Origin: a virus
Lineage: Duplodnaviria > Caudoviricetes
Strand: one strand, 5' to 3'
IMG/VR virus record: IMGVR_UViG_3300034062_003112
Coordinates: 1 to 37,448 of that record
DNA length: 37,448 nucleotides
Position numbers and translations under genes: made by a program. Positions 6,747 to 37,434 of the stretch are shown here, piece by piece. The notes under the pieces were generated by a model. The model had not been told where the DNA came from. It ran no database searches and was given only the letters and a program-made list of their open reading frames with translations. The stretch's first letter is position 1, and each line of letters begins with the position of its first letter.

Positions 6747-7486
6747 TGCGTTTTCGGGTTACTGTTAATGATATCAACCCAGAGCAAGATTACACTGTTG
6801 GAGAGTTGTGCAAAATTCGCACAGGACGAAACAGGGAACTTGTTGAAGCATTAAGAAATGATCCAATTGCTCCTAACCCTGTTTTTCAAACTCACAATAA
6901 GAAGTTGTACAGAGGCAAAGACATAATTGCTTATGTTAATGGTGAAAACGCCGGCTTGTCTGATTTGGAAACAATCGCGATTAAAAAAGTGAATGCGGTA
7001 CTGGAAAGAGAGCGCGAGAATTTGGAAAGAGAGCGCGCAAAGCTGGAAAAGGAACGTGAAGCTCTTCATGCTGCTATAAATGAAGAGCGCAACAAGTGGA
7101 CAATTGAAAACCTTGAAGCTTTGAAAAACGAAGTTTTGCAATGCTTGAAGTTAGAAAGTGGAAGGCTAGCGTCTGGTTATGTCGGTACATGGGCCGGGCC
7201 TGGCGTTTATTTTTTGAAGGATAAAGGCGAAATTGTTTACGTCGGTCAATCCGTCATGATGGCTGGCCGCATAAGCCAGCATATGGCTGACCACAATAAG
7301 ACATTTAATGAGGTGATGTTTTTCAAATGCGAGAAAGAAGAGCTGGATAACTGGGAAGGGTTTTTCATTCGTCTTCTGAGACCGAAACTGAATGGCGGAA
7401 TAAATCGTGAAAACCCCTCAGCTCCATTGAGTTCTCTATGGATGCGTGTCGAAAAGTGGAAAGTTGAAATGGAAGCGATGTCATGA
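6743..7486 (+). CDS. GIY-YIG nuclease-domain protein with N-terminal HTH-like region and coiled coil (AT-rich)
   Basis: GVYFL...VYVGQS...RISQH...E...I...P.LN in the C-terminal third. AGGAGG then ATG 6743 overlapping the upstream stop. Hand count 20/60 GC at 6841-6900 versus 43/60 at 7801-7860. Confidence 0.8.
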   Translation: MMRFRVTVNDINPEQDYTVGELCKIRTGRNRELVEALRNDPIAPNPVFQTHNKKLYRGKDIIAYVNGENAGLSDLETIAIKKVNAVLERERENLERERAKLEKEREALHAAINEERNKWTIENLEALKNEVLQCLKLESGRLASGYVGTWAGPGVYFLKDKGEIVYVGQSVMMAGRISQHMADHNKTFNEVMFFKCEKEELDNWEGFFIRLLRPKLNGGINRENPSAPLSSLWMRVEKWKVEMEAMS

Positions 7487-9411
7487 TCGACTTCAACGAC
7501 GCAGCACGCCAGCAGCCCTTCGAAGACGCCTCGGTCAGGAAGGAAAGGGTCTACCGAACCCTTCAGGGCCGGGTCCGCGAGTTTGTGCGGTATCTCTATC
7601 CACGCGCCACGATGGGTCCACGGGATGCCCGGATAGGGGATGTTTCGGGGTCCAAGGGACTGAGCCTGTCCATTTCTTTGACGGCGGATGATACGGCGGG
7701 GAAATGGATCGACCATGCCACGGGCGATCGGGGGGATGTGTTCGGGCTTTATGCCGTGGCACACAATCTGGATGTCGCCCGGGACTTTGCCCAGATCCTG
7801 GCTGAGTGCGATGCGTGGGCCGGGGGTTCTCCGGCGCCGCGGGCGATCATTCGCCATGAGGTCGAGGCCGCCAAGCCCATCGAACCCGAGCCCGAGCGAA
7901 CTGTAGATGCCCGTTACGTCTACAGGGACAAGGCAGGACGCAAGATCTGCGAGGTGGTCCGGTATCGGCTGAGTAATGGCAAGAAGAATTTCGCGGTTCC
8001 CGGAGGGATGCCATCTCCCCGGCCGCTGTATGGATTAGAGCGGTGGCATGCGTCAGAAACGGTCGTAATTGTCGAAGGCGAGAAGTGCGTGGATGCGCTG
8101 GCGTCGATTGGCGTTGACGCCGCTAGCCTTATGGGCGGGGCTAACACATCGCTGGACAAGGCCGATCTGACGCCGCTGGCCGGCAAGAAGGTGGTGTTGT
8201 GGCCGGATGCCGATGAGCCTGGCCGGAAGCTGATGGCGGGGCTGGAAGGGCCGCTGAGGGCCATTGGCTGCTCGGTGCGGGTGTTGGGCATCCCCGCGGG
8301 CAAGGCTGATGGCTGGGATGCAGCAGACGCCATTGCAGAGGGTTTTGACGTGGCGGGGTTCCTGCGGGAGCCGGAAACCTCCTCGGCCATCCTGCACGAA
8401 CTATGGCCTGACATCTCTTTTGTTTACGAACCGGAGCTGGTTGAGGACCTGTTTCCGCGGGTCGGGTTGGGCACGATTTATGGCCCCTCGACGGCCGGCA
8501 AGACCTTTGTGGCGCTGGACTGGATGGCGTCGATCGCCACGGGCCGACAGTTGTTCGGCAGGGATACAGAGCCAGTCGGCGTGCTGTATTTCGCTTTTGA
8601 GGGGTATTACGGCATTCGCAAGAGGATCTCCGGCATCAAGCAGGAAAAGGGTTACGGGCCCGTGGCGCTTGAGTTGGTGGACGCCCCGTGGACCCTCTCG
8701 GATGCGGACGACTGGACCGGCTTAAGGGCCCATATCGTTGCGGCAAGGGAGCGCCTCGAGCAGACAGGTTTCGGGCTCGGGATCATTGTGGTGGATACCC
8801 TCACAGCCGCTTACGCCGGCATCGACGCCAACTCCCAGGCCGAGGTGACCAAAGCCATGCGCCAGCTGAAACGGCTCGCCATGGACATGCAGTGCCTGGT
8901 GCTGGTGGTCGGCCACACGGGCAAAGACACCACGAAGGGAATGGTTGGATCGTTCGCCTACAAGTCCGAGAGCGACACGTTCATTGAGCTCCGGACGGAG
9001 AAAAACGAGGGCGACGGAAGCATCAAACGGCGGTCGATCTTTATAGAAAAAGTAAAGGATGGGCCGTCTGATTTCGTCCTCTCGGACTACGCCCTGATCG
9101 AAGTTCGGATTGGCACTAAGCCCAATGGCAAGCCCATCACGACCTGCGTGGTGGAGTGGGTCAAGCCGCCAGAAAAGGATGGCGAAGCGGGCGCCAAGCC
9201 GCTCTCAAAATCAGCTCGGACCATCCTGGCGATGCTCTTCGAGGGGCCGAAATTCGTAAAAGAGCTTGCGGAAGAAACTGGCTTGAAAAGGCCCACTGTG
9301 CAGTTGATCCTTTCAGAATTGAGTGTTGCCAAGAAAGTTTATGCTAAAGACGTTGAAAACGCGAAATTGTGGTATGTGTTGGAAACCGAGGCAACACCTC
9401 AACAGCAATGA
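7483..9411 (+). CDS. Primase-helicase: TOPRIM domain + AAA_25/RepA-like helicase + C-terminal winged helix
   Basis: TOPRIM motifs IVEGEKCVDA and WPDADEPG; Walker A GPSTAGKT; Walker B IIVVDT; VVGHTGKD; C-terminal KELAEETGLKRPTVQLILSEL HTH. Confidence 0.9.
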   Translation: MIDFNDAARQQPFEDASVRKERVYRTLQGRVREFVRYLYPRATMGPRDARIGDVSGSKGLSLSISLTADDTAGKWIDHATGDRGDVFGLYAVAHNLDVARDFAQILAECDAWAGGSPAPRAIIRHEVEAAKPIEPEPERTVDARYVYRDKAGRKICEVVRYRLSNGKKNFAVPGGMPSPRPLYGLERWHASETVVIVEGEKCVDALASIGVDAASLMGGANTSLDKADLTPLAGKKVVLWPDADEPGRKLMAGLEGPLRAIGCSVRVLGIPAGKADGWDAADAIAEGFDVAGFLREPETSSAILHELWPDISFVYEPELVEDLFPRVGLGTIYGPSTAGKTFVALDWMASIATGRQLFGRDTEPVGVLYFAFEGYYGIRKRISGIKQEKGYGPVALELVDAPWTLSDADDWTGLRAHIVAARERLEQTGFGLGIIVVDTLTAAYAGIDANSQAEVTKAMRQLKRLAMDMQCLVLVVGHTGKDTTKGMVGSFAYKSESDTFIELRTEKNEGDGSIKRRSIFIEKVKDGPSDFVLSDYALIEVRIGTKPNGKPITTCVVEWVKPPEKDGEAGAKPLSKSARTILAMLFEGPKFVKELAEETGLKRPTVQLILSELSVAKKVYAKDVENAKLWYVLETEATPQQQ

Positions 9412-9532
9412 AAACAATGGGTTAAGGGGGGGTGTTGGATGTGTTGGCAACATGTTGTGTGTTGTGTTGCGGATACCGGGAGTGGTGTTGCCTTTTTGGG
9501 GCTCATCTTTAGATGACCCAAAAAGCAACACC
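9323..9532. repeat. Cluster of GTGTTG/CAACAC repeats and a long inverted repeat; candidate replication origin
   Basis: GTGTTG at 9323, 9376, 9432, 9441, 9459, 9464 and 9485; CAACAC at 9392 and 9526; palindrome CAACATGTTG at 9448-9457; imperfect hairpin at 9484-9532. Confidence 0.6.
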
Positions 9533-9580
9533 CGATCCGGGGCGACAGGGCAAAGGGAAGAATTTTTTTCGGAGGGTGAT

Positions 9581-9877
9581 ATGGATTGGCGTGAGTGCAG
9601 GTACTTCTGGAACCCGGATACGGGGTTCGTTCTGGTGACCCGCAAGGGTGGGGTCGATCCGGGCAAGGAGGTCGCCAGGATGTGGATGGATGGCGCCGAG
9701 GACAGGCTGGAGGGTCTGGCGTGGGATGACCTGGCGATTGTGGCCAAGGTCTTTGTTGAGTTTAACACGCTGGTTGTGCGCGATAGAATTTCTATTGACG
9801 ACGCGCACCGGGAGTTTCTGAAGATCAGGCAGTATCGCTGCTTCGTGGCGCCGGACGTTTCGGGTGCGGAATTATAG
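9581..9877 (+). CDS. Hypothetical protein (98 aa)
   Basis: GGAGG RBS at 9571-9575 supports ATG 9581 rather than the track start at 9323. Confidence 0.65.
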   Translation: MDWRECRYFWNPDTGFVLVTRKGGVDPGKEVARMWMDGAEDRLEGLAWDDLAIVAKVFVEFNTLVVRDRISIDDAHREFLKIRQYRCFVAPDVSGAEL

Positions 9878-9887
9878 GGGCAATGGG

Positions 9888-9934
9888 TTGACGCTGTGCG
9901 CGAGGCGCCGCAGAACAATTCGCGCAACAGGAGA
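9888..9934 (+). promoter_or_regulatory. Putative promoter and RBS upstream of the 9943 gene
   Basis: TTGACG at 9888-9893 followed by CTGTGCGCGA, a 10-mer also present at 3134-3143 on the minus strand. AGGAGA RBS. The -10 is unclear. Confidence 0.4.
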
Positions 9935-9942
9935 CCCACCCC

Positions 9943-10224
9943 ATGACCCATGACCAGGCCATATCCGAGTTCCGCGAAGCCAGCGCCGCCGTGCGCCGCG
10001 CCTATGCCGCGCACCATGACGCCCGCATGGGTCAGATCCTGGCTGACCTTGCCATGGCTAAGGCGACAGAAAATCTAACGGCTGCTCAGGACAGGCTGGC
10101 GGCTGCGGATGAGGCCCTGCGCCATGCCGAGGAGCCGGCTCCCCCGCCCCCGGCGGATATCGATGCTTCCCGTGGGGCGTGGGCGGATATCCATGCCGTT
10201 GGTTTCGAGACGGCTGACCAATAG
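9943..10224 (+). CDS. Hypothetical helical/coiled-coil protein
   Basis: AGGAG RBS; Ala-rich helical sequence. Confidence 0.7.
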   Translation: MTHDQAISEFREASAAVRRAYAAHHDARMGQILADLAMAKATENLTAAQDRLAAADEALRHAEEPAPPPPADIDASRGAWADIHAVGFETADQ

Positions 10225-20005: not shown

Positions 20006-20304
20006 TGTTCGACTTCGACCCCTTCGACATCGCTTCGCAACAGGCCCGGGAAAACGACCGGCGCCATGTGGCTGCGATTGACCGCAAGGCCGAAGCGGAA
20101 GACTGGTCATGGCTGATGGCCAGCAAGAGAGGACGCAAGATTGTGCGCGAGCTGCTCGACCATTGCGGCGTGGCGCGTTCGAGTTTTACCGGCTCAAGCG
20201 AGACTTTCTTTCGCGAGGGTCAAAGAGCGGTGGGCCTGTATGTGATGCGCCAGGCATGGACGCACGCCCCCGCCAATTGCATGGAGATGCTCAAAGATGA
20301 GTGA
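20005..20304 (+). CDS. Bbp19-like head-module protein
   Basis: WLM...GRKIV...SF...TFFREGQRAVG motif; located before the scaffold. Confidence 0.75.
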   Translation: MFDFDPFDIASQQARENDRRHVAAIDRKAEAEDWSWLMASKRGRKIVRELLDHCGVARSSFTGSSETFFREGQRAVGLYVMRQAWTHAPANCMEMLKDE

Positions 20305-20935
20305 AGAAACGTTGATGACCGCCCCACAACCCACGGAAAGCGTGTCGTCTACGACGGCCAGCCCCGCAGATGCATCGACGGATGCGCCTGCGACTGGCGA
20401 CCAGCAGCCGGCTCCGGCTGCAGACACCTCGCCCGCGGAAGACAAGCCCGCGACCAGCGAGGCGGCTCCAGAAGCAGACTATGAGTTCGCCTTTGCAGAA
20501 GGGGTTGAAGTCGACCCCGAGACGCTTGGCGACCTTAAGGGCCTGTCGAAGGATCTTGGTCTGTCGAAGGAGCAGGCGCAGCGGATAGCGGACCTTGGCG
20601 CAAAGCAGGCTCAGAAATGGGCCGAGGCGCAACAGGCTGCTATAGCGGAGGCTACCTCCGCATGGGTCGAGCAGGTCAAGAGCGACAAGGAGATCGGCGG
20701 CGATAAGCTGGCCGAGAACCTGGCGACGGCTAAACGCGCGCTTGACAAGTTCGGAACCCCAGAGCTGCGGGCGCTGCTGGATGAAAGCCGGCTTGGGAAC
20801 CACCCGGAGCTTATCCGGGCATTTCACAGGATCGGCAGGGCCATCGCCGACGATGCTATCGTCCCGGGAGGCAGGTCAACCAACCAGCCAACCGACCCGG
20901 CGAAGCGGTTATACGACAACAGCAACCTCGCATAA
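20297..20935 (+). CDS. Capsid scaffolding protein
   Basis: Acidic Pro/Ala/Thr-rich N-terminus, GLSKEQAQ and LGNHPELIRAF; directly upstream of the major capsid gene. Confidence 0.85.
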   Translation: MSEETLMTAPQPTESVSSTTASPADASTDAPATGDQQPAPAADTSPAEDKPATSEAAPEADYEFAFAEGVEVDPETLGDLKGLSKDLGLSKEQAQRIADLGAKQAQKWAEAQQAAIAEATSAWVEQVKSDKEIGGDKLAENLATAKRALDKFGTPELRALLDESRLGNHPELIRAFHRIGRAIADDAIVPGGRSTNQPTDPAKRLYDNSNLA

Positions 20936-25756: not shown

Positions 25757-26362
25757 ATGGCGCTAACGACAGCACAGATGGCCACAGCCGCCCTGACGAC
25801 ACAGGCTATCGGCGGCGTCGGGCAGGCCTTTGGCGCGTACTACCAGGCGCAGGGCCAGAAGACCGCCCTGAAGCTGCAGGCGCGTATGGCTGAGATCAAT
25901 GCACAGATCGCGCAAGGACAGGCCCGGGATGCGCTTATGCGCGGCGAGCGACAGGAGCAGGGCTCCCGCATGCAGGCCGCTCAGCTCAAATCCTCGCAGC
26001 GCGCAGCCATGGCCGCCAGCGGGATTGACCTCGGCTCCGAAACGTCCGCAGCTATCCTTACGTCAACCGATTACCTGTCCGAGATGGAAGCCAACACGAT
26101 CAAGGCCAATGCCCTGCGCGAGGCGTGGGGGTACAGGATGGAGGCCGTCGGGCGGCGCGGAGAGGCTGGCATGGCGCGTGCGACCGCGCGGGGGATCAGC
26201 CCCGTTGGCGAAGGGCTGACATCTCTGTTGACGTCGGCGAGTACCGTGGCCGGCAATTATGCGACCTTCTCCTCGCTGGGGGCGTTTAACAAACCATCAG
26301 CGATTGGCAGCATGGCGGCAAGGTCTGGCGCTGATCTGTCCAGATTTAGAGGGCCACGCTAA
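25757..26362 (+). CDS. Internal virion protein (gp14-like ejection protein)
   Basis: Ala/Gln/Gly-rich helical protein with QRAAMAASGIDL; first gene after the nozzle. Confidence 0.75.
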   Translation: MALTTAQMATAALTTQAIGGVGQAFGAYYQAQGQKTALKLQARMAEINAQIAQGQARDALMRGERQEQGSRMQAAQLKSSQRAAMAASGIDLGSETSAAILTSTDYLSEMEANTIKANALREAWGYRMEAVGRRGEAGMARATARGISPVGEGLTSLLTSASTVAGNYATFSSLGAFNKPSAIGSMAARSGADLSRFRGPR

Positions 26363-28068
26363 TGCCCAAAGTCCCCACAGCCGAAGGGTTTGGCGCATTG
26401 CCCGGCATACGGCAGGGGCAGGCGCGGCCGGTCATGTCCATGGAGGAGGCCAGCTTGCCGGGTCAGCGCATGATCCGCGCCGGGCAGGCGGCCATGCAGG
26501 TGGGCGGGCAGATGGCCGAGTTCGCCATCCGCGAGCAGGAGAAGATCAACAAGGCGCGCCTGAACGACGCTTACAACCAGGCTGACCGCCTGACGCAGGA
26601 CCTGCGCGTCAAGATGAAACAGCTGCAGGGGGCTGACGCCGTCGAGATCAATGGTGTTCCCCTCGACCAGTATTTTGGCGAGGAACTCAACAAAGGCCTC
26701 AGCGCCATCACGCAAAATCTGCAGGCGCCCGTGGTGCGTGAGCAGTTCTCCCTGCTGGCCGATGACGTATCAACCCGCTTCCGAAACGAAGCCATTACCC
26801 ACATGGCTGAGCAGGGGCAGGTGTATGAGAGCCGGGTGCTGGACGATACCGTCACCACGTCCATGAACCTGATCGCCGAGAACGCCGGCAATACTTTTGT
26901 CGAGCGGTGGAACCTGACGCGGGCCAAGGACGCCCTGCGGACCAAATACGACCGCGCCGGCTTTGACCCGGAGCAGGCCGACCTGCGGATGAAAGAGGAT
27001 CTTGGCAAGAGCCATACGGTTATTATCGAGGCCATGGTCAATCGCGGTCAGGTCATGCAGGCCAAGTCCTACTTTGACCGCCACCGCGGCGACTTTCTCA
27101 GCGCCGACGCCAGCACGGTCGAGGGGGCGCTGCAGAAAAGCATATCAGCCAGCCAGGCGCTGGTGGATGTTGACGCGGTTGTCTCCAAGATGCCGCTGCG
27201 TGGAGATAATATCCGCCGGGCTGACATGGACGCAGAGCTGCGCCGGATTGTCGGCGATGACCCTGTCCGTCTGAGTGCGGCGCGTTCAGAGCTGAATACC
27301 CGTATCAGCTTCCATCTCGACCAGTACGCTGGCGAATACGCCAACGATCAGGACCGCGTCTTTACCCTCGCCCAACAATCGCCTGCTGCCGCCATGGCCA
27401 GCCCGTCATTCGCGCGCCTGAAAGCCAAAGATCAGAAAGCCATTCTTGACATGGCGACGGGCATCCAGAGCGACCGCGTCAGGGCGCAGCAGGACATCAC
27501 TTACGGCAATCTGGCTTATGGCGATCCTCGCATGCTGGCGGGCATGACTGACAACGCTTTCCGCTCCCTGCGCTTCGGCATGAGCCAGGAACAGTTTGCC
27601 AGCCTGGACAAGCGCCGACAGGAATTGCGTCAGAACCCGCTGGCCATCAATCGCATGAACGTCGACAACACTACCTTCGACTTCCTGCTTGGAGAGCTCG
27701 GCATTGACGACCCAAAACAGGTGGAGCCGGCCACGCTGTTCAGGTTGCGGGACGGAATGGAAAGTGTCCTGACACTGGAAAGAGCGCGACTTGGGCGCGA
27801 ATATCTGACGCCGGACGAGATGCGAAACGTAATCGTTGGCGAAGCGATCAAAAAGGTCAGAACCGTACTTACCGGATCAACCGGACAGGCGGCTCAAATT
27901 GTTCCCACAACCATCACGGATGTGAACCAGATACCGCCAACTATACTTTCGCAGATGAAACAACTCATGCAGCAAAACTATCAGCAGACAGGCGATGCAC
28001 AGTATCTTGTGACAGATGCCAATCTTATAGCCCAATACGAAGAGTTCGTTTCCAGAACGCGCAAATAA
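26362..28068 (+). CDS. Internal virion protein (gp15-like ejection protein)
   Basis: MPKVPT start, helical throughout, 568 aa; lies between the gp14-like gene and the giant protein. Confidence 0.7.
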   Translation: MPKVPTAEGFGALPGIRQGQARPVMSMEEASLPGQRMIRAGQAAMQVGGQMAEFAIREQEKINKARLNDAYNQADRLTQDLRVKMKQLQGADAVEINGVPLDQYFGEELNKGLSAITQNLQAPVVREQFSLLADDVSTRFRNEAITHMAEQGQVYESRVLDDTVTTSMNLIAENAGNTFVERWNLTRAKDALRTKYDRAGFDPEQADLRMKEDLGKSHTVIIEAMVNRGQVMQAKSYFDRHRGDFLSADASTVEGALQKSISASQALVDVDAVVSKMPLRGDNIRRADMDAELRRIVGDDPVRLSAARSELNTRISFHLDQYAGEYANDQDRVFTLAQQSPAAAMASPSFARLKAKDQKAILDMATGIQSDRVRAQQDITYGNLAYGDPRMLAGMTDNAFRSLRFGMSQEQFASLDKRRQELRQNPLAINRMNVDNTTFDFLLGELGIDDPKQVEPATLFRLRDGMESVLTLERARLGREYLTPDEMRNVIVGEAIKKVRTVLTGSTGQAAQIVPTTITDVNQIPPTILSQMKQLMQQNYQQTGDAQYLVTDANLIAQYEEFVSRTRK

Positions 28069-28080
28069 AGGCTGAGAAAA

Positions 28081-31000
28081 TTGCCGCCTAACGATCCGCC
28101 AGAGCAAAACGAAAACATTCGCGATATCGCGCGCAGTCTCAGGATTTCGCCTGAAGCCGCGCGGTCCATGATGGAGAGGCAGACCGCAGAGCCTCTGGAT
28201 TTTGAAACATTTGGCTATCTTGGCGATTACCCGACGCGCCCCGAAAATGTTGACGTCGCCCCATGGGCGCGTACGGACGAGCGCCTGATTGATTTCTTCT
28301 CGGCGAAAAGACAGCAGCAGGCTCCCGCCGATCCTTTGTCTGACTTCTTCAAAACCAAGGCAGCCGCATCCCTGCAGACGCAGGCCGTAAGCCGCAATGC
28401 TGCGATGATGTCGGCTATCGCCACCAATCCCGACCAGGAAGCCGCTATTCGAAAGATGGCTTCCAGAATGGAAATGCCCGTTAGCCTTGTCAGGGGCATG
28501 GGCATGGCGGAAGCGCAAAACAAGGTTGCGCGTGACAATGTCAACCCGGCCAACACGCCATCTCTCGCAAAAGCCTATTCGCAACCAGACTGGGCGCAGC
28601 TGGCGATTGATGACTGGGAAAAGCTGAGTGATGTCGAAAGGATCATCAGGCAGGCCGGCGGATGGCAGAATGAAATCAGCAACGCAAGAAGTCAGATAAA
28701 CGAATTTGAGCACAAGCTCTTTCTTGGGCAGCCTCTGCGTCCGTCTGAACAACTTAAATATCAGGATCTTGAAAACCGTATCCGCGTGCTGTCGCAGCAG
28801 CAGAAAGCTGGCGAAACTGGTCCATCTTACGTTCTTAACGTCATCTCTGGAACGGCAACCGATGTTGCATCCAGTTTGCCGGAAATGGCCATTTACGGGA
28901 CCGTCGGATTGATAGGCGGCCCGCAGGGGGCGCGGTATGGCGCCCAAGTGGGATCCGCTTTTTACAACTACCGTCAGATTGTCGGAACAACATTCAAGGA
29001 ATATCGCAATATCCGCGATCAGACGACTGGTGAATTTATCGACCAGGATGTGGCGCGTGGTGGGGCTTTCATAAACGCCATATTCAGTGTCGGTCTGGAA
29101 ACCTTTGCCGACAAGGTTCTGCTCGGCTTGGTAGTGCCTGGCGCTGAAAAGTTCCTTTCAACTCCCGGCAAGGATGTTGTCAGCCAGCTGCTGCAATCTG
29201 AAGGCGGCCGCAATGTCATGATGCGCGTCGGCAAAAAGGTTGCAACCGGCGCCATTGTTGAGGCCGTGACAGAAGCCATACAGGAAGGCAGCGCAATTCT
29301 TGGCGGTGAAACTGTCAAGGCAGTTGCCCCCGGCGACTTTGCTCCGATCAGCGAAGAAGAAACCAGACAGCGCATTCAGACTGCAGCAATAGAGGGCGGT
29401 ATTGGCGGCGGCGGTCTGGCCGGCATTGCGGCGGGTCCGCAAATTATTATTGAAAACCGCGCCATCGCGAGGGCGGAGCGTGAACTGGCCACGTCAAAGG
29501 GTAGCGTTGACGCTGTTGAACGCGCCGTTCAGGCTGCCTCCGAAAGCAAGCTTATCGCCCGCGACCGCGGCGAACTGGAGAAGTTCATTGACGACGCGGC
29601 GGCTGATGGCCCGGTGTCGACCGTCTACTTCTCGGCAGATGACCTTGCCAATGTCGCACGCGAGGCCGGTCTTGAGCCGCAGCAGCTGGCCCAGCAGCTT
29701 GGCGTCACGGACCAGATCCAGCCGGCATCCGTTACCAATGCCCTGCTTGAGATGCCGGTTGGCAAGTTCATCGCCACGGTGGCCGACACCGACCTTGCCA
29801 AGCCGCTTATTCAGGTCATCAAGACCAACCCCTTCCTGCTGAACCGCGCCGAGCAGGAGGCCTACTCATCCGGCGGCAGGCAGGATATCATTGCTGAGGC
29901 TGACCGCCTTGTGCAGCAGGCCTTGACAGACGAGACCTTCGCCGCTGAGGCCCAGTCCATACAGGACGAGGTGCTGCAGCAGTTCCGCGCCTTTGAGGGC
30001 GGCGAGGTGTTCACCCCGGAAGTCAATCGCGCTTACGCCACCATCACGACGCAGGGCTATGTCTCACTGGCCCGGCGCATGGGCATCAGCCCGCGAGAGG
30101 CTTACCAAAAGTATCAGACAGGTCCGCTTCAAATCCAGCGCCAGGCTGCGACAGAAGAAGGCATGGGTCAGCCCGTTTTGGCGCAAGCCAAGCAGGTCGG
30201 TTACGAAGGCCAGAGCATTGGTGAAGCGCAGGAGTGGGTGCGCGCCCGCGAGAAGGGCCTGGACATGTCGCAGGAAGGGCGACTGCAGCGGGCGCAGGAG
30301 ATGGGGTTTGATACGGGGCGCGTGGTTTATCACGGAAGCCCGTATTCGATAGATGCCTTTGATGTGACTAGAGGCGGAGAGTTAACCAAAGTTGATGTTG
30401 CAAAAGAGGGCATTTTCCTCGTTGATCAACCGGACATAGCCGCTGGTTATGCCACAACAGGTTTGAGCCTTAGAGCGCAGAACGATGTTCTGCCTATTGC
30501 AAGAAAAGTGAACTCTGGGGAAACGGCCTACGACTTTCAAGGCAATAAAATAAATCCCAAAACATTTGATGCCATGGAGCTGGTGAAGGAGCGCATTGAA
30601 ACGCTCAGAAAAGAAGGAATGAGCGAAGGCGCGACTTATCCGCTTGTGGTGCGTGGCAACATCAAAGTTGTCGAAGGCGCGGATCAACGGCTTGAAGGGC
30701 AAAAAGACTTCGTCAAGATGTTTGCGTCTTTGCCAGCGGATGAAATCAGACGGGCAAAAGAAGAAGGTTACGACGGCGTTCGGTTTGTGCAAACAACGGA
30801 CTACGGCAATGTCGGTGATTATACGGTCATCTTCGACCCCTCCAACATCCGCTCCGTCAACGCCGCTTTCGACCCGGAGTTTGCCGAGAGCGCGAACATA
30901 CTGGCGCAGGATCTCATACCGCCTGACATACAGGCCGAAATGGTCAGAATTTACAATGAAAATATTGGCACAGAACAGGAAGACATTGATCGTTTTATAA

Positions 31001-34000
31001 ACTCACGCGATGCAGAAAAGTATAACTGGAACAAAATTACAGAGCAGGATCTGATTGATCGCATTGGTGAAGACGAAGATGTCAATGCGACGTTTCCAGA
31101 AGCCATGGAAATTATCCGCCAAGAAGGCGCGGCTATAGAATATGGAACAGACAACAACATAAATTATGCTGCTGAAAGAGACGCTCCGAAACGAAAAGAG
31201 TTTTATGCTGATGCCGCTTACGAAGAAGGATGGGTCAAGCCCAGACCGGAAACCATTGATGACATTCTGCAAATTGGCGTTGATGAATTTGCCGCCTCTC
31301 AGGTGATGGAATACCTTGCGGAAACTGAAGGCTGGACAGCAACCAAAGTTAGAAAAAATTACAGATATCAAACTCTTGAAAAGGAGGTTGCCGGCGGCGT
31401 TGTCTATCTTAACGTGCGAATTTCTGACCATGCTAAACAATCTGCGGTTGGACATGCCGTTTATGGTAAAGATGACATAGATATCAATCTTGCTCCGTCT
31501 GTTGGCGAAGGTAACGAGCAGTATGCTGCTGACGATTTTAACAGCATGCTGATGAAGATGCGCGAAGCAGAACAGCGCGGGCCTTTAGATGAAAATATAC
31601 TCGGCCAGGAGCGCGAGCTGGATGCGATGGGGTTTTACTCAGCGGTTCAGGAAGCCGCGGTCAGGATACCCGATAACATCTGGGCCATGGGCTGGCAGGC
31701 CGCGCGAAATGCCATCGCGAAGGGCAGAGGTGGCCTTCCTCCGCGCAGGACCGAGATGGAGTATCTGGGCCTCGACGCCATGTTTGGCGACACGGAGATA
31801 AGGCCGGGTGACAATTTCCCAAGGAAGGGCGCTGCGCTCAAGGAAGCTGTGCTTGAGCACATCGCTGCAAAGCGGCTGGCGCTGGTTGAGAACTTCGTGC
31901 GGTTTGATCCGAACGAAAAGAAGATGCCGAGCAAACGTGCAATGCTGGAGGCCATGTCGCCGCAGGCGCTTAGCTCCCTCATTAATGTTGAGTTCCAAAA
32001 CCAAGGCGACGGGCGTGGCAAAATCGTCAGCGACCTTGGCAATCCGCTCTATCTTTATATCCAACGCAAAGGCGAAGCGCTTGCCTCGCCAACCTATTAC
32101 GATCTGATGCAGCCACAACCTGGCGGCGAGGCCAAAGTAATCGCAACCGGAACTATAGGCGACCTGGACCCCATCGTTGGCAAGATGATTTTTGACGCCA
32201 ATCCCGAACGAGCGGTTCGTCGGATCGACAAGGACGCGCTGGCTGAAGCCTATCAAGAAGGATATGCGTCCAATCTCGTCCGCGGCCCCGGCGACATCCG
32301 CCTTCCTGGTGAAGATGTGCCGATGTTTGAAGCTGTCATTGGCATTCCCAAGGGTGTACCGGGTGCGGAATATCAGGCTCCTGTGTCGCATGTCGGCGGC
32401 AAAGCCAAAGGCACGCTGGTCACAGCGCATGGCGAAGAGCGCATCGACGACAAAGGCCAGCGCACAATCTTCGTTGGCCAGGTCCAGTCGGACATAGCGC
32501 AGGAGGCAAGGGAAAAAAAAGATCGGGTACGGGGTGTAGAGAAGGCGAGCGAGTTAAGTGCCGAAGTAATGAAAGCGTCTGGCATCAAGGATCGGCGAAC
32601 CGCATTAGATTACCTGTATGAAATCCAAGAGGTTGATGGTCGCAAAACCTCGCAGGAATACTTCGACGAACGATGGAAAAACGTCAATGACCATTACGTT
32701 TTAAGCCCTGCTCTTCAAGAGTATGCGCGTCGAAACGACATGGAGTTCACCTTCCTTCCGACCGCGTACGACCTTGAACAAGCTAATACTTATAGCCCCG
32801 ATCGTTTAAGGGCTCCGCTTATAACCACCTCCGAATGGACCAACGTCGCTGTCAGGGCGATGATCTACCGCGCCGCGCGTCAGGGCTTCCAGTCCATCAG
32901 TTTTCCGACTGGTCAAACCAGCGCGATCATTCAGGGAAATGAAGAAGCGGTGATGCACTACGAGACCAACGTCAAAGGCGCGCTGGAAAAGATAGCCCGG
33001 CAGCTGGGCGGGGAGGTTCGGAGGGGGTCGGTCAAGTACAACCCGCTGGATCAAGCGGAGTGGGAAAACCTGCCGCAAGAAACCGCCGAAAAAGCGCTTG
33101 CTTCACTTTGGTCGCGTCTGCCTCCGGTTGTTCGCGGGACCATTCGTATGAACATGCCGAATATGCGTAAGACAGACGATGGCGAGTTTTATGTCGCTAC
33201 TGCATCGCGCCCCGGTAAGGATGACAGCGGCGTTGGTAAAGACACCTACGAATGGACGTTCGCCCGCGAGGCCAAGCGCAATCCGCTAATCGCAGCCTAT
33301 CAGATATGGGTACAAGGCGCGATGATCTTTGGCCAGCCTGGCGCTTTTGAGCGTTTAATCACGGCGGCGGGCGGGCCTCAAGGCGCAGTCACTGAAGCAC
33401 TTCAGCAAGCCATCGCCGAAGGTGAGCCGGCTTCCGCCTACATCCTCGACCTCACCCCGGAAATGCGGTCGAAGATTGTTACCGAGGGTTTCCCCCTCTT
33501 CGCCCCCGGCCGGCGCGCCCAGTATCAGCCCGATCTCAACAGGATCATGCTTCTGCCCAAAGCGGACTGGTCCTCTTATCTGCACGAGATGGGTCACCAT
33601 TTCCTCGAGGTGTACAACAACGCCGCCCTGCAGATCATGCAGACGCCGGAGGCCGATCGCACGCCGGATGAGCAGGAGCTTGTTGACGAGATGCGTCTGC
33701 TTCTGACCGACATGGCGCGTCAGGCCGGCACGCCGATAACGGGCGATGTTCTGCAATGGTGGGCGAATACGCCGCTTGATGATCGCAGGCCGGTGCATGA
33801 GAAATACGCCCAGGCCACCGAGAAGTATTTCATGGAGGGCAAGGCTCCTGTGCCGGAGCTGCAGAGCCTGTTTGACAAGTTCCGTGACTGGCTGATTGAG
33901 ACCTACAAGAGACTTGCCACGGCGCTCAATGTCGAGTTGTCCGACGAAGTACGCGGCGTCATGGATCGCATGTACGCGGCGCACGAGACGGTCAGGACGG

Positions 34001-37000
34001 CTGAATACAATCGCAAGCTGGTCGCCCTGTTCCGCGAAAAGCCGGAGGACATGACCGAGCAGCAATGGACCGCCTACCAGCAACTTGCGGCGCAGGCCAC
34101 GGACGACGCACAGAGCGACCTGACGGCCCGGTCGCTGCGGGACATGCAATGGCTGTCTGGCGCCCGTGCGCGCGTGCTGCGTAGATTGCAGCGGGAAAAT
34201 GCGGATAAACGTAAAGTGGTCGCAGCCGAGGTCACAGCCGAAGTTATGGCCCAGCCGGTCAATGTCGCCCGCTCTTTCCTGCGCCGCGGCATCGCCCCCA
34301 ATGGCGAGCCCGTTGTCGGCCCGCATAAACTGTCCATTGATCTTATGAAAGCTCGTTATCCAGAAACAGATGTTGATGGAAAACTTGTTCGTTCAATAGT
34401 TTTCGCTCGCCTCGGCTACGGCCAATACGGCATGCTGGCGAAAGACGGTATGGACCCCGACATGGCGGCCGAGCTGCTTGGGTATCCGTCTGGCGATGCT
34501 TTAATCAACGATCTTCTTTCGGCGCAGCCAGAAGATTACGTCATCAAAACCGAAACAGACCGGCGCATGCTTGAGCGCTTTGGCGATCTGAATGACGAGA
34601 CGAAACTGTCTCGCGCGGCGGATGAGGTCATACACAGCGCCATGCGCGCCAAGGTCCTGCAAGCTGAATACGCCGCCCTGTCCAAGGCCGCCAAGCAAAC
34701 ACGGCCAGTGGCTCTTGCTGCCAAAGAGATCGCCAAGGAGATCGTCGGCCGGCAGGTTGCATCCAAGCTGAACCTTAACCGCTATCTGGCGGCAGAGCGT
34801 GCCGCTGGCCGCAAGGCTGAAGCCGCCATGCGATCGGGCGATTTCCGCGCCGCTGCAAGCGCCAAGCGTGACCAGCTGTTGAACTTTGAGGTCGTCCGCG
34901 AAGTGCAGCGTGTTCTGAAAGAGCGCAACCGGGCTCTGGATCTGTTCTCACGCATCAACAAGGCAAAGCGCGACACGGTGGCCAAGACCCGCAATTATGA
35001 TCTGGTGCAGGCGGCCAGGGCGATACTGGCGGCTTACGGGTTCGGGTCGGTGAAGAATAAGCCAACCGACTACATCAAGCTTATTGCTGAATATAACTCT
35101 ACACTTTTTGAAGCCCTTGAGCCCGTCATCAATGATGCCATCAAGGGGAAAACTCTAGACCAGCTTACGGTCGCTGAGTTCCTTGGACTGCACAGCACCA
35201 TCAAGGAAATATGGGACCTCTCGCGCGAGGAAATGAAAGTTCAGATAGAAGGAAGACAGGAAGAGCTGTCCAAAATTCTTGATGAGTTTGACGACCAGTT
35301 TGTCCTGCTGAAGGTTCAGGCCCCAACATTCCCGAAGGAAAGCCCGACGGAGACGGAGGAGAAACTCAGAGAGTTTACAAGCATACCATCCCTTGCGCGC
35401 CGGATTGAGTCGCTCATGAGGCTTTTTGACTTGGGAAAGACAGGCCCATTTACAAAATACATCTGGCGACCTGTCAGCGAAGCGGCTGAAAGATATCGGG
35501 CAGACCAAAGCAAGTATTACAGCAAGCTGAAAGACCTGTTCAAGGAATATGAAAGCGTCTTTGAAAACACCAGAGGCAAAATCTCATGCAATGAACCTGG
35601 AGAGATCGGGTTCACGTTCAAAGGCGGCAAGCCTCAACTTCTGCATGCGATCGCCCATACAGGCAACGCCAGCAACAAGCGCAAGCTTCTGCTTGGTTAC
35701 GGCTGGGGATCTCTCGACCAGGATGGTAACCTGATCGACAACGCATGGCAGAATACCATCAATCGACTTGCACGCGATGGCATTCTGACCAAGGCTGATT
35801 TTGATTTTGTGCAAAAGCTTTGGGATATTAATGAAGAGATAAAGCCTCTCGCACAAGAAACGCACCGCAAAGTATTTGGCGCTTACTTTGATGAGATTAC
35901 GGCAGAGGAAATGCAGACGCCGTTTGGCGCATACAGGGGCGGATACATGCCCGCCATTACGCGCAAAGATGTTGTGCCAAAAGACCAAAAGCGAGCGGCG
36001 CAGGAAATTCTTGATACCAGCCAATCCGCCATGTTCCCGGCTGCTCCGAACGGATTTACAAAAACGCGTAATGAGCAATACGCGGAAGCCCTGGCGTTAA
36101 ACCTCAACCTTATTCCCCAGCACGTAAATAAGGTGTTGAAGTTCGCGCACATGGCTGGCGCGGTTAAAGACGTGCTGAAAATTACAAACAATAAAAACTT
36201 TTCCCGATCCCTTGAGGCTGCTTATCCCGGCATTGATGCGACGGCCATAACGCCATGGCTGAACAGATCTGTTCGTCAGATCATTGAAACGCCGATTGCC
36301 AATCCAGCTCTCAAGCATCTGGACAGTTTCGCCGGATACCTCCGCACAAACAGCGGCATCGGAATTATGTTTGCCAACCTTGTCAACTCAATCCAGAACG
36401 TCACGGGTATTACCAATGCGATATTGCGGATAAATCCGGTTTATCTCGCAAGAGCGCATGTCAATTATACGCGCAACCCGTTTCAGATGCGGAAGTTTAT
36501 CAATCAGGCATCACTCATGATGACCAACCGCGCCGATACTCAGGTTGCGGCAATGAACAACACGATACAAACCGTCATGAGGGGGAAAGATGTTTTCAAC
36601 ACCGTCAGGGATTTTTCCAAACAGCACGCTTATTTCGCACAATTAGCTGTTCAGAACACCATCGATACAATCACATGGATGGGCGCTTACGATCAGGCGA
36701 TATCAAAAGGCGAAACATCTTCTGAAGCCGCCAAACAGGCAGACGCAATCGTTCGTCAGACGCAAGGTTCATCGGCTGCAGAAGACATCAGCTATGCAGA
36801 AACAGGGCCGCATTTCATCCGCCTGTTCACCCATATGTATGGCTATTTCAACATGCTGGGCAATTTGTATTCGACCGAAATCAGGATCGCTTTCCGCTCA
36901 AGCGGAATAAAAAAAGGTCTTGGAATGCTGTTTTTTGTTTACGTCGCTGGATATCTGCCCATGTCCATGCTTGGCGGTTTGATTGCGGACGGCATGCGCG

Positions 37001-37434
37001 GTCAATTGCCGGAGGAAGAAGAAGAAGAAGGCTGGCTTGGGCCGTGGCTGGAATACTATTTCAACACACAGATAAAGACAGCTACTGCCTTCGTCCCGAT
37101 ATTTGGCCAGGGCATTCAAGGCTTTTTCAACGCCTTCAACGACAAGCCTTACGACGATCGCGTCCTGCAGAGCCCCGGCGTTGGAGCGGCGGAAACCATA
37201 ATACGCACTCCGTTCACCGTTGTTGAAGCGATTACCGGCGAAGGCGATGCCTCTAAGGCGATCAAGGACACGCTGTCCCTGATGACTACGCTTACCGGCA
37301 TTCCCTTCCAGGCTCTTGGCAGGCCCATTGGCTACGCGGTCGACGTTGCCGAGGGCGACATTGAGCCCACAAGCGAACTGGATTACATACGGGGGCTTGT
37401 AACCGGCACAGCCTCCGAGGCGTCAAGACAATAG
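28081..37434 (+). CDS. Giant internal virion/ejection protein (gp16 position), polyvalent type: ART-like domain, two unknown modules, zincin metallopeptidase, helical C-terminal region
   Basis: Uninterrupted 3117-aa ORF with TTG start. YHGS...GYDGV...IFDPSNIRS at aa ~750-925; HEMGH at aa 1835-1839 with downstream HEKYA; hydrophobic segment near 36915-36990. Confidence 0.85.
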   Translation: MPPNDPPEQNENIRDIARSLRISPEAARSMMERQTAEPLDFETFGYLGDYPTRPENVDVAPWARTDERLIDFFSAKRQQQAPADPLSDFFKTKAAASLQTQAVSRNAAMMSAIATNPDQEAAIRKMASRMEMPVSLVRGMGMAEAQNKVARDNVNPANTPSLAKAYSQPDWAQLAIDDWEKLSDVERIIRQAGGWQNEISNARSQINEFEHKLFLGQPLRPSEQLKYQDLENRIRVLSQQQKAGETGPSYVLNVISGTATDVASSLPEMAIYGTVGLIGGPQGARYGAQVGSAFYNYRQIVGTTFKEYRNIRDQTTGEFIDQDVARGGAFINAIFSVGLETFADKVLLGLVVPGAEKFLSTPGKDVVSQLLQSEGGRNVMMRVGKKVATGAIVEAVTEAIQEGSAILGGETVKAVAPGDFAPISEEETRQRIQTAAIEGGIGGGGLAGIAAGPQIIIENRAIARAERELATSKGSVDAVERAVQAASESKLIARDRGELEKFIDDAAADGPVSTVYFSADDLANVAREAGLEPQQLAQQLGVTDQIQPASVTNALLEMPVGKFIATVADTDLAKPLIQVIKTNPFLLNRAEQEAYSSGGRQDIIAEADRLVQQALTDETFAAEAQSIQDEVLQQFRAFEGGEVFTPEVNRAYATITTQGYVSLARRMGISPREAYQKYQTGPLQIQRQAATEEGMGQPVLAQAKQVGYEGQSIGEAQEWVRAREKGLDMSQEGRLQRAQEMGFDTGRVVYHGSPYSIDAFDVTRGGELTKVDVAKEGIFLVDQPDIAAGYATTGLSLRAQNDVLPIARKVNSGETAYDFQGNKINPKTFDAMELVKERIETLRKEGMSEGATYPLVVRGNIKVVEGADQRLEGQKDFVKMFASLPADEIRRAKEEGYDGVRFVQTTDYGNVGDYTVIFDPSNIRSVNAAFDPEFAESANILAQDLIPPDIQAEMVRIYNENIGTEQEDIDRFINSRDAEKYNWNKITEQDLIDRIGEDEDVNATFPEAMEIIRQEGAAIEYGTDNNINYAAERDAPKRKEFYADAAYEEGWVKPRPETIDDILQIGVDEFAASQVMEYLAETEGWTATKVRKNYRYQTLEKEVAGGVVYLNVRISDHAKQSAVGHAVYGKDDIDINLAPSVGEGNEQYAADDFNSMLMKMREAEQRGPLDENILGQERELDAMGFYSAVQEAAVRIPDNIWAMGWQAARNAIAKGRGGLPPRRTEMEYLGLDAMFGDTEIRPGDNFPRKGAALKEAVLEHIAAKRLALVENFVRFDPNEKKMPSKRAMLEAMSPQALSSLINVEFQNQGDGRGKIVSDLGNPLYLYIQRKGEALASPTYYDLMQPQPGGEAKVIATGTIGDLDPIVGKMIFDANPERAVRRIDKDALAEAYQEGYASNLVRGPGDIRLPGEDVPMFEAVIGIPKGVPGAEYQAPVSHVGGKAKGTLVTAHGEERIDDKGQRTIFVGQVQSDIAQEAREKKDRVRGVEKASELSAEVMKASGIKDRRTALDYLYEIQEVDGRKTSQEYFDERWKNVNDHYVLSPALQEYARRNDMEFTFLPTAYDLEQANTYSPDRLRAPLITTSEWTNVAVRAMIYRAARQGFQSISFPTGQTSAIIQGNEEAVMHYETNVKGALEKIARQLGGEVRRGSVKYNPLDQAEWENLPQETAEKALASLWSRLPPVVRGTIRMNMPNMRKTDDGEFYVATASRPGKDDSGVGKDTYEWTFAREAKRNPLIAAYQIWVQGAMIFGQPGAFERLITAAGGPQGAVTEALQQAIAEGEPASAYILDLTPEMRSKIVTEGFPLFAPGRRAQYQPDLNRIMLLPKADWSSYLHEMGHHFLEVYNNAALQIMQTPEADRTPDEQELVDEMRLLLTDMARQAGTPITGDVLQWWANTPLDDRRPVHEKYAQATEKYFMEGKAPVPELQSLFDKFRDWLIETYKRLATALNVELSDEVRGVMDRMYAAHETVRTAEYNRKLVALFREKPEDMTEQQWTAYQQLAAQATDDAQSDLTARSLRDMQWLSGARARVLRRLQRENADKRKVVAAEVTAEVMAQPVNVARSFLRRGIAPNGEPVVGPHKLSIDLMKARYPETDVDGKLVRSIVFARLGYGQYGMLAKDGMDPDMAAELLGYPSGDALINDLLSAQPEDYVIKTETDRRMLERFGDLNDETKLSRAADEVIHSAMRAKVLQAEYAALSKAAKQTRPVALAAKEIAKEIVGRQVASKLNLNRYLAAERAAGRKAEAAMRSGDFRAAASAKRDQLLNFEVVREVQRVLKERNRALDLFSRINKAKRDTVAKTRNYDLVQAARAILAAYGFGSVKNKPTDYIKLIAEYNSTLFEALEPVINDAIKGKTLDQLTVAEFLGLHSTIKEIWDLSREEMKVQIEGRQEELSKILDEFDDQFVLLKVQAPTFPKESPTETEEKLREFTSIPSLARRIESLMRLFDLGKTGPFTKYIWRPVSEAAERYRADQSKYYSKLKDLFKEYESVFENTRGKISCNEPGEIGFTFKGGKPQLLHAIAHTGNASNKRKLLLGYGWGSLDQDGNLIDNAWQNTINRLARDGILTKADFDFVQKLWDINEEIKPLAQETHRKVFGAYFDEITAEEMQTPFGAYRGGYMPAITRKDVVPKDQKRAAQEILDTSQSAMFPAAPNGFTKTRNEQYAEALALNLNLIPQHVNKVLKFAHMAGAVKDVLKITNNKNFSRSLEAAYPGIDATAITPWLNRSVRQIIETPIANPALKHLDSFAGYLRTNSGIGIMFANLVNSIQNVTGITNAILRINPVYLARAHVNYTRNPFQMRKFINQASLMMTNRADTQVAAMNNTIQTVMRGKDVFNTVRDFSKQHAYFAQLAVQNTIDTITWMGAYDQAISKGETSSEAAKQADAIVRQTQGSSAAEDISYAETGPHFIRLFTHMYGYFNMLGNLYSTEIRIAFRSSGIKKGLGMLFFVYVAGYLPMSMLGGLIADGMRGQLPEEEEEEGWLGPWLEYYFNTQIKTATAFVPIFGQGIQGFFNAFNDKPYDDRVLQSPGVGAAETIIRTPFTVVEAITGEGDASKAIKDTLSLMTTLTGIPFQALGRPIGYAVDVAEGDIEPTSELDYIRGLVTGTASEASRQ

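Follow-up and report, generated by a model that had tools for sequence, protein, structure and literature searches.

A junction motif that follows the zincin clade points to self-processing of a giant T7 gp16-like ejection protein

Does a giant phage ejection protein cut itself into pieces? The question is raised by a 37,448-nt stretch of viral DNA (Duplodnaviria; Caudoviricetes), positions 1 to 37,448 of IMG/VR record IMGVR_UViG_3300034062_003112 and hereafter called the window, which encodes a T7 gp16-like protein of 3,117 amino acids (aa). This protein consists of a conserved N-terminal core (N-core), three cargo modules, an HExxH zincin domain and a conserved C-terminal core (C-core), and a first-pass annotation of the window had proposed that linkers between the modules are cleavage sites for the zincin, recombination joints or both. 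We put the probability that it is a self-processing polyprotein, whose own zincin cuts [LFYM]-x-Q linkers and frees the cargo, at roughly 0.65. Two features point to such processing, namely a recurrent border motif selected at the protein level and the co-variation of this motif with the protease encoded in cis.

All motifs were found where the first-pass annotation had placed them in the open reading frame (ORF) 28081-37434, including GFPLF at 33487-33501, HEMGH at 33583-33597 and HEKYA at 33796-33810. Its claim of near-identical border motifs held in that a recurring motif is real; the family-wide form is [LFYM]-x-Q rather than (N)[IV]L[AG]Q. At the fourth border the closest relatives (P0002-P0005) have GFPLFQ. 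When the protein was shuffled 5,000 times, at least three [IV]L[AG]Q occurred in 13 shuffles and two NIL[AG]Q in none; this pattern was picked after seeing the data and the single-protein signal is modestly unusual, so the homologue tests carry the weight. The base-composition shifts that had been noted at the borders were recovered in part. G+C change points at codons 1173 and 955 lie near the borders at 1176 and 943, and a third strong one, at codon 754, lies about 50 codons inside module 1, away from Q702.

For the homologue tests, we searched with aa 1790-2150 and took the best 120 of 672 proteins, of which 117 had the N-core anchor; a locus set comprised 90 usable of 94 loci (80 new IMG/VR loci, earlier loci and the window). 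The stretch from N-core to zincin ranged from 25 to 1,758 aa in the 117 anchored proteins. As the first-pass annotation had anticipated, module content changed at the motif: [LFYM]xQ stood before the first strand of the zincin in 87/99 unique contexts, at the N-core end in 92/101 (background 9-14% for both) and before module 3 in 35/39. It also preceded the ADP-ribosyltransferase (ART) module in 26/35, and internal anchor controls gave 0/26, 5/60 and 4/52. In the locus set, the motif was present before the zincin in 66/80 and at the N-core end in 72/79. In a close relative (L001), unrelated modules replace modules 1 and 2 between VMEQ, TLAQ and VLAQ, and module 3 ends in SLFQ.

Swap breakpoints, defined as ends of pairwise homology and located without using the motif, gave a similar picture. 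Of 413 breakpoints, 146 lay no more than 4 aa from [LFYM]xQ, against a random mean of 36.5 and a maximum of 55; for 8 aa the count was 215 (random mean 65.7, maximum 83). Replacing Q by E, A, S, N, K or D in this test gave no enrichment. In the variable regions, L.Q was the top enriched gapped pair (477 versus 284 expected), and it was outside the top 15 gapped pairs listed for the cores. Cargo was also found inside the zincin itself, between HExxH and the third ligand, in 9 of the 117 proteins; six of these inserts carried the strict motif on both sides and one had VFQ...LAQ, compared with any motif in 6/82 uninserted loops. Cargo within the zincin was seen in three loci (L002 at 6755-10033, L003 and L004), the L002 insert including a second copy of module 3, and in P0019 HExxH and the third ligand are up to 2,120 aa apart. 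An extra LAQ-bounded array lies 3' of the zincin in P0137-P0156 (five displayed).

The same borders occur around single cargoes in cultured phages. In Bbp10 of Bordetella phage BPP-1, FDQ608 and FYQ768 flank the one cargo; in gp39 of Caulobacter phage JessA (2039 aa, with HEAGH at 820), LTQ587 and LAQ791 flank a single ART. When two junctions of one protein were compared, the middle letter was not matched (7/126 versus 8.0 expected), whereas the first letter agreed in 65/126 versus 53.8 (p 0.005, uncorrected for kinship). Splitting the relatives at motifs gave 423 modules in 93 clusters, a cluster count that is thus not independent of the motif, and most clusters were unnamed. Pfam-named cargo in 16 scanned relatives comprised ART, PBECR1/3/5, GNAT, LPD3, LPD23, DUF7178, DUF3293, ParB-N, the zeta toxin family and sigma-70 r4. 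Comparison across about 200 relatives indicates that [LFYM]-x-Q is a real, family-wide junction code recurring at module borders.

We also compared carriers of the same cargo with and without this type of zincin. Carriers were gathered by module 3 (37 matches) and by ART (best 120 of 6,568), and in 186 of them we read the three residues that follow the conserved tail of the ART. Carriers were classed by a profile of the zincin (aa 1812-1971, motif excluded), whose scores were bimodal (at least 67.7 or at most 15.7 bits). In zincin-positive carriers, ART ended in xxQ at 93/93 unique ends (80/80 carriers), despite 35-70% divergence of the cargo, compared with 9/372 ends (3/106 carriers) in zincin-negative carriers, for which NEQ, DSQ, RYQ, RFQ, NYQ and RAQ were listed. 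The usual ART endings without a Bbp10-type zincin were RFS, RYS and [TRL][KR]S. A profile cut at 15 bits instead gave 94/96 versus 8/369 ends. An initial classification (88/88 versus 14/377) had used a short profile with a threshold set post hoc and was replaced by the full-domain bimodal profile; a loose test of the ART end (54/109), contaminated by matches to zincin strands, was replaced by a stricter anchor.

The ending also followed the zincin when the scaffold was different. Six proteins (P0198, P0207, P0209, P0211, P0244 and P0261) have the zincin and no match to the Bbp10 N- or C-core, and still use LxQ; the P0198 group keeps a short remnant of the N-core end, so descent contributes there. 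Under the initial classification, 98/425 ARTs had their best match in the other carrier class. A tree was made from 79 ARTs plus a sample of 110 from 346, leaving out the tail; on it, carrier class changed 42 times, compared with a mean of 60 and a minimum of 46 after shuffling. In independent pairs on supported branches, the ending switched with the zincin in 6/6 (p ~0.03). Furthermore, in otherwise unrelated giants the flanks of module 2 follow the repeated motif of each carrier (MFN-RRR/LYN-RRR in P0126, AFNRA/LFSRR in P0128, LFSQ in P0132, YARGG/YGDGG in P0134). By these comparisons, the Gln ending is associated with the zincin clade, not with the cargo or the scaffold, and because it tracks the clade across scaffolds, recognition of the linkers by the cis-encoded protease has strong indirect support.

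Two kinds of giant proteins were seen alongside this comparison. P0198, P0207, P0209 and P0211 (4,100-4,700 aa) are ART/LPD23 arrays that end in a Bbp10-type zincin and miss both structural cores, possibly a cargo array moved out of the ejection scaffold. P0144 and P0134 are giants without a Bbp10-type zincin that have ART or module 3 in common with the window, and their repeats are [AG]MG-x-GG-like and Y[AG]xGG.

The active-site signature of the zincin is invariant. H1835, E1836, H1839 and E1907 were invariant in an alignment of 41 rows, in line with the earlier placement of the likely third ligand in HEKYA, and HExxH was intact in 120/120 homologues and in 156/156 profile matches. An AlphaFold2 model with a mean predicted local distance difference test score (pLDDT) of 87 gave two strands (E23-26, E31-34), the HExxH helix (H40-63) and a later helix (H109-129) with E1907, a predicted gluzincin-type layout in which the HExxH helix follows beta strands and a Glu ligand lies downstream. 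The match to a solved zincin was weak (VIA Z 5.3, root-mean-square deviation 4.5, 99 aligned); the same structure is cited for N4 in the available part of Iyer et al. (PMC5512222). No match to the zincin sequence was found in the PDB, and hhalign of the 41-row alignment against P0126 matched only the N-terminal part. This domain may carry out zinc-dependent peptide cleavage.

If the protein processes itself, the full-length form would be packaged and ejected like T7 gp16 and N4 gp50, its cores forming part of the ejection conduit, as is established in T7 and N4. The zincin would fold and bind zinc in the course of ejection, after it, or already in the maturing head, and would cut exposed linkers, with specificity coming from the motif and from linker accessibility. 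Cutting would probably occur in trans between subunits, which is favoured by the short distance between the last junction and the first strand of the zincin (2 residues in 88/168 cases). The predicted pieces are 76.0, 26.6, 26.5 and 216.9 kDa, so that release in the window protein would concern the 26.6-kDa (ART) and 26.5-kDa (module 2) pieces; module 3 may remain on the zincin and C-core because its junction reads LFA, cutting of which would split the last piece into 69.9 + 147.0 kDa. Incoming cargo would have to gain the resident motif for release, which would explain the switching of tails. The scissile bond could lie after Gln, giving new N-termini at 703, 944 and 1177, or equally before the hydrophobic residue; as the latter position is preferred by many zincins, the new pieces could begin with Leu instead. 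In the literature covered, including the available parts of PMC3863775 and bioRxiv 2026.02.16.706137, we found no proteomic data with fragment ends.

Several observations weigh against self-processing. Of the breakpoints, 198/413 lie more than 8 aa from the motif; most of them mark divergence within a module or the zincin loop, or the start of a linker at some greater distance from the Gln. Among pre-zincin contexts, 12/99 are without the motif, and so are the borders of 2/9 zincin-loop inserts (P0047 and P0098). [LFYM]xQ is found 34 times in the 3,117-aa protein and 13 times in its gp15-like neighbour, so a site must be defined by more than the tripeptide. The last junction of the window is LFA, which may be a weak or uncut candidate site, and module-3 ends in Bbp10-type carriers (n=57) are Q in 42, A in 6, H in 6 and other in 3, with no matching change seen at other junctions. 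The zincin motif was absent from 36/241 anchored carriers by a first pattern (about 28 on a looser look), and several carriers that lack it have retained stereotyped tails, for example [TRL][KR]S, xFS and N[MF]A; such carriers may use a trans-encoded or different peptidase, or their tails may serve another role. The third letter is not constant inside a single protein in the HEVGEH clade. The 156 profile matches included no homologue whose zincin is dead, and the fold match is weak (best zincin rows in Foldseek E 1.2, probability 0.60). Recombinant full-length N4 vRNAP shows 'no evidence of degradation' in the available text of PMC13434306.

A rival role for the motif is that of a docking or threading signal which binds the zincin or the ejectosome uncut and orders the modules for packaging and tail passage, the protein staying whole as N4 vRNAP does. 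N4 vRNAP remains full length, and encapsidation requires its HExxH region (available parts of PMC13434306 and PMC5512222). A docking motif would likewise follow the zincin clade, and it would suit the tolerance of A and H at the last junction and the retention of one motif in 6/8 cargo-free homologues. However, the general-base Glu is as invariant as the three metal ligands, although a domain that only binds would not have to retain it, and the motif on both sides of 6/9 zincin-loop inserts is what excision would be expected to leave. We consider a docking role unlikely.

Cutting of the linkers in trans by a host protease or another phage protease is distinctly improbable in our view. Here, the zincin would act on peptidoglycan or a host protein, as proposed for phi24B gp47, and the available part of the phi24B preprint (bioRxiv 2026.04.10.717836) suggests a peptidoglycan role for a similar domain. 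The stereotyped tails of carriers without HExxH would fit, as would the PHROG 'protease' label on the gene at 20297-20935; yet the product of that gene is scaffold-like and has no Pfam or NCBIfam peptidase match. [LFYM]xQ is constant across phages of six host genera (Bordetella, Caulobacter, Cobetia, Pseudomonas, Xanthomonas and Vibrio) yet changes with the type of cis zincin, and the capsid proteins of BPP-1 are uncleaved (available part of PMC3863775).

The least probable explanation is that the motifs are DNA recombination joints, as the first-pass annotation had also entertained, or inherited scars of cassette duplication without a protein-level role: although swaps cluster at the motif, G+C shifts lie near two borders and recombination within the conserved ART tail could give incoming cargo the resident ending, synonymous codons vary freely and Gln is kept at every ART end of the zincin-positive carriers. 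At 138 anchored junctions the Gln codons were CAG in 91 and CAA in 47, like the background, and the junction Leu was encoded by five codons in proportions near background. The third base of the Gln codon was common to two junctions of one gene in 33/62 (shuffled 33.0), no direct repeat linking junctions was found among the 20 largest families of 33, and the joints have no conserved nucleotide site of the kind that marks a site-specific DNA cassette. The codon evidence indicates that the junction motif is selected at the protein level, and short homology may assist exchange as a side effect.

The window protein has three cargo modules, and the 'anti-host enzymes' proposed in the first-pass annotation have an assigned family in module 1 only. 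The ART-PolyVal match there spans aa 748-927. G+C at third codon positions (GC3) is 0.47 in the ART core (aa 746-900, 30316-30780) and 0.79 and 0.77 in its N- and C-terminal flanks, which suggests that exchange is not confined to the linkers and also affects ART cores, between flanks that are conserved. Module 2 had no Pfam or NCBIfam match above cut-off and 16 matches among 1.84 billion representatives, one of which (P0133) is a repeat protein and was disregarded; four are free-standing ORFs, 225-262 aa long and hardly larger than the module. In its AlphaFold2 model, pLDDT was 83-97 over most of aa 945-1167, and the predicted fold begins past Q943 and stops some 9 aa short of Q1176, leaving both Gln outside; low pLDDT at the linkers is partly due to missing alignment depth in the flanks. 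The model weakly resembles the PD-(D/E)xK nuclease fold: matches to VRR-NUC, Hjc, DrdV and other restriction-type folds were weak (VIA Z 4-5.8, none at 8), and Foldseek gave none at E<=0.001. A PBECR identity, suggested by the RISDH motif, was dropped for lack of Pfam support. Two small proteins without a zincin, P0121 and P0122, start with MGSNLGN and contain module 2, which has 74% identity in P0121, either by itself or together with ART; the common N-terminus may be a packaging tag. Module 3 is the second commonest cargo in the Bbp10-type family (52/423 modules). It had no Pfam or NCBIfam match, and the ESM Atlas gave only unnamed clusters at 0.88; nothing usable for modules 2 and 3 was found there, and PDB sequence searches were likewise empty.

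The window covers most of a podophage genome (Table 1), with the gene order terminase, portal (PF12236), capsid (PF20911), Bbp16-like cement, adaptor, nozzle, gp14-like (PF24072), a 568-aa gene and the 3,117-aa ORF. The order of the gp14-, gp15- and gp16-like genes matches bbp12-bbp11-bbp10 in BPP-1. In tblastn, the zincin region matches 49 phage records, including Caulobacter JessA (46.1%) and Cobetia Carin1, and Bbp10 at 38.8% over 95% of the query (E 5e-33). Bbp10 is listed as a homologue of T7 gp16 (IVP-D, for internal virion protein D) in Table 2 of Hardies et al. (PMC4819975, available part). Homology to Bbp10 and a location after IVP-B and IVP-C, that is, after the gp14- and gp15-like genes, agree with the gp16-like identity given earlier, and from the position and the IVP-D homology we infer packaging of the protein and its delivery into the host. 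Because Pfam finds LPD22 and ART-PolyVal (PF18760), both above cut-off, it fits the definition of polyvalent proteins given by Iyer et al. 2017, with at least two unrelated conflict domains, a location among late virion genes and cargo that varies between relatives; together with the HExxH domain, this bears out the ART and zincin architecture that had been read from the sequence. The gene at 20297-20935 carries the PHROG 458 label 'protease', yet its product is acidic and of low complexity and it lies directly 5' of the capsid gene; no peptidase match was found in Pfam or NCBIfam, and the product reads like a scaffold protein.

Table 1. Positions of the ejection-protein features and neighbouring genes in the window.
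Feature	Position	Strand	Evidence or remark
gp14-like internal virion protein, first of the ejection trio	25757..26362	+	PF24072 T7_gp14 E 1.1e-7; phrog_418
gp15-like internal virion protein	26362..28068	+	assigned from position between gp14-like and gp16-like genes; phrog_10475 aa 34-278
Giant gp16-like polyvalent ejection protein, IVP-D, BPP-1 Bbp10 family	28081..37434	+	3117 aa, 345.9 kDa, TTG start; phrog_9880
Conserved N-core, aa 1-702	28081..30186	+	LPD22 aa 107-194, PF18834 E 2.1e-9
Junction 1, MGQ-PV-LAQ (Q697, Q702)	30163..30186	+	92/101 unique N-core ends bear [LFYM]xQ
Cargo module 1, aa 703-943, ART-PolyVal ADP-ribosyltransferase family (putative activity)	30187..30909	+	PF18760 E 2.7e-11, above cut-off
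Junction 2, NILAQ (Q943)	30895..30909	+	xxQ at all 93 unique ART ends from carriers of the same zincin
Cargo module 2, aa 944-1176, low G+C, R-[IV]-S-D-H	30910..31608	+	GC3 0.37; 16 matches
Junction 3, NILGQ (Q1176)	31594..31608	+	motif precedes 35/39 unique module-3 starts
Cargo module 3, aa 1177-1808, unnamed FYS...H...QSD...ITPE family	31609..33504	+	52-member cluster
Junction 4, variant L-F-A, aa 1806-1808	33496..33504	+	closest relatives L-F-Q
Zincin-like metallopeptidase (MPTase), ~aa 1812-1971	33514..33993	+	HEMGH 33583-33597 (H1835-H1839); predicted third ligand E1907 33799-33801
Helical conserved C-core of the ejection protein	33994..37431	+	phrog_9880 aa 1817-3111; 64% identity to L001 over aa 1772-3116

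The kind of protein and the idea of autoproteolysis are known. In the available part of their paper, Iyer et al. 2017 propose autoproteolytic release of domains by the MPTase, cite P1 DdrB as processed and note N4, ArdC and TraC1 as unprocessed (PMC5512222). The window protein resembles their polyvalent proteins as a large virion protein with LPD22, ART-PolyVal and an HExxH...E MPTase, and its relatives carry a similar repertoire (PBECR, GNAT, LPD3, LPD23, ParB and the zeta toxin family). In contrast, no cleavage site or linker is named in the available part of that paper, whereas here an [LFYM]xQ border co-varies with the zincin clade. Bbp10 and T7 gp16 are alike in their position after gp14- and gp15-like genes, and Bbp10 (38.8% identity) also in its motif-bounded cargo; T7 gp16 differs in having 1,317 aa and, in the available part of bioRxiv 2026.02.16.706137, no cargo array is described, versus three modules in the window protein. 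No report of Bbp10 processing was found in the parts of the literature covered. N4 vRNAP (gp50), an IVP-D homologue, is similarly organised, an HExxH subdomain and then a helical C-terminal part coming after a cytoplasmic cargo (available parts of PMC13434306 and PMC4819975), but its one cargo is fixed. The available parts of PMC9503650, PMC9024508 and bioRxiv 2020.03.07.982082 were compared as well; leaving aside the supplements of Iyer et al., which possibly hold linker alignments, and most subscription papers, we found no published junction motif or linker code. What is new is thus a defined junction motif that tracks the protease.

Short degenerate motifs read only in accessible linkers are familiar from viral polyproteins and head-maturation proteases, such as the Gln sites of 3C-like enzymes and the I/L-x-E sites of T4 gp21. 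Here, by contrast, an ejection protein contains the candidate enzyme, a zincin, and what would be released is accessory cargo that can be exchanged, not fixed structural or replication proteins. We see an even chance that this extends to phage and plasmid polyvalent proteins at large, which would then be polyproteins with a protease-linker code, each zincin clade using its own motif (LxQ in one, RFS or FN-RRR in others), with effector cassettes re-tagged as they move between carriers and an ejection-channel protein doubling as a multi-effector injector before phage gene expression.

Since 2017, excision of effector domains by the zincin has been an open guess with no site named. A motif that tracks the protease turns it into residue-level predictions in the cultured phages JessA, Carin1 and BPP-1, and gives a rule for dividing thousands of giant 'hypothetical' virion proteins into real units. 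The 93 module clusters found here, most of them unnamed, are candidates for counter-defence or host take-over. If the self-processing reading is true, podophages would have a natural route to deliver several proteins at the onset of infection.

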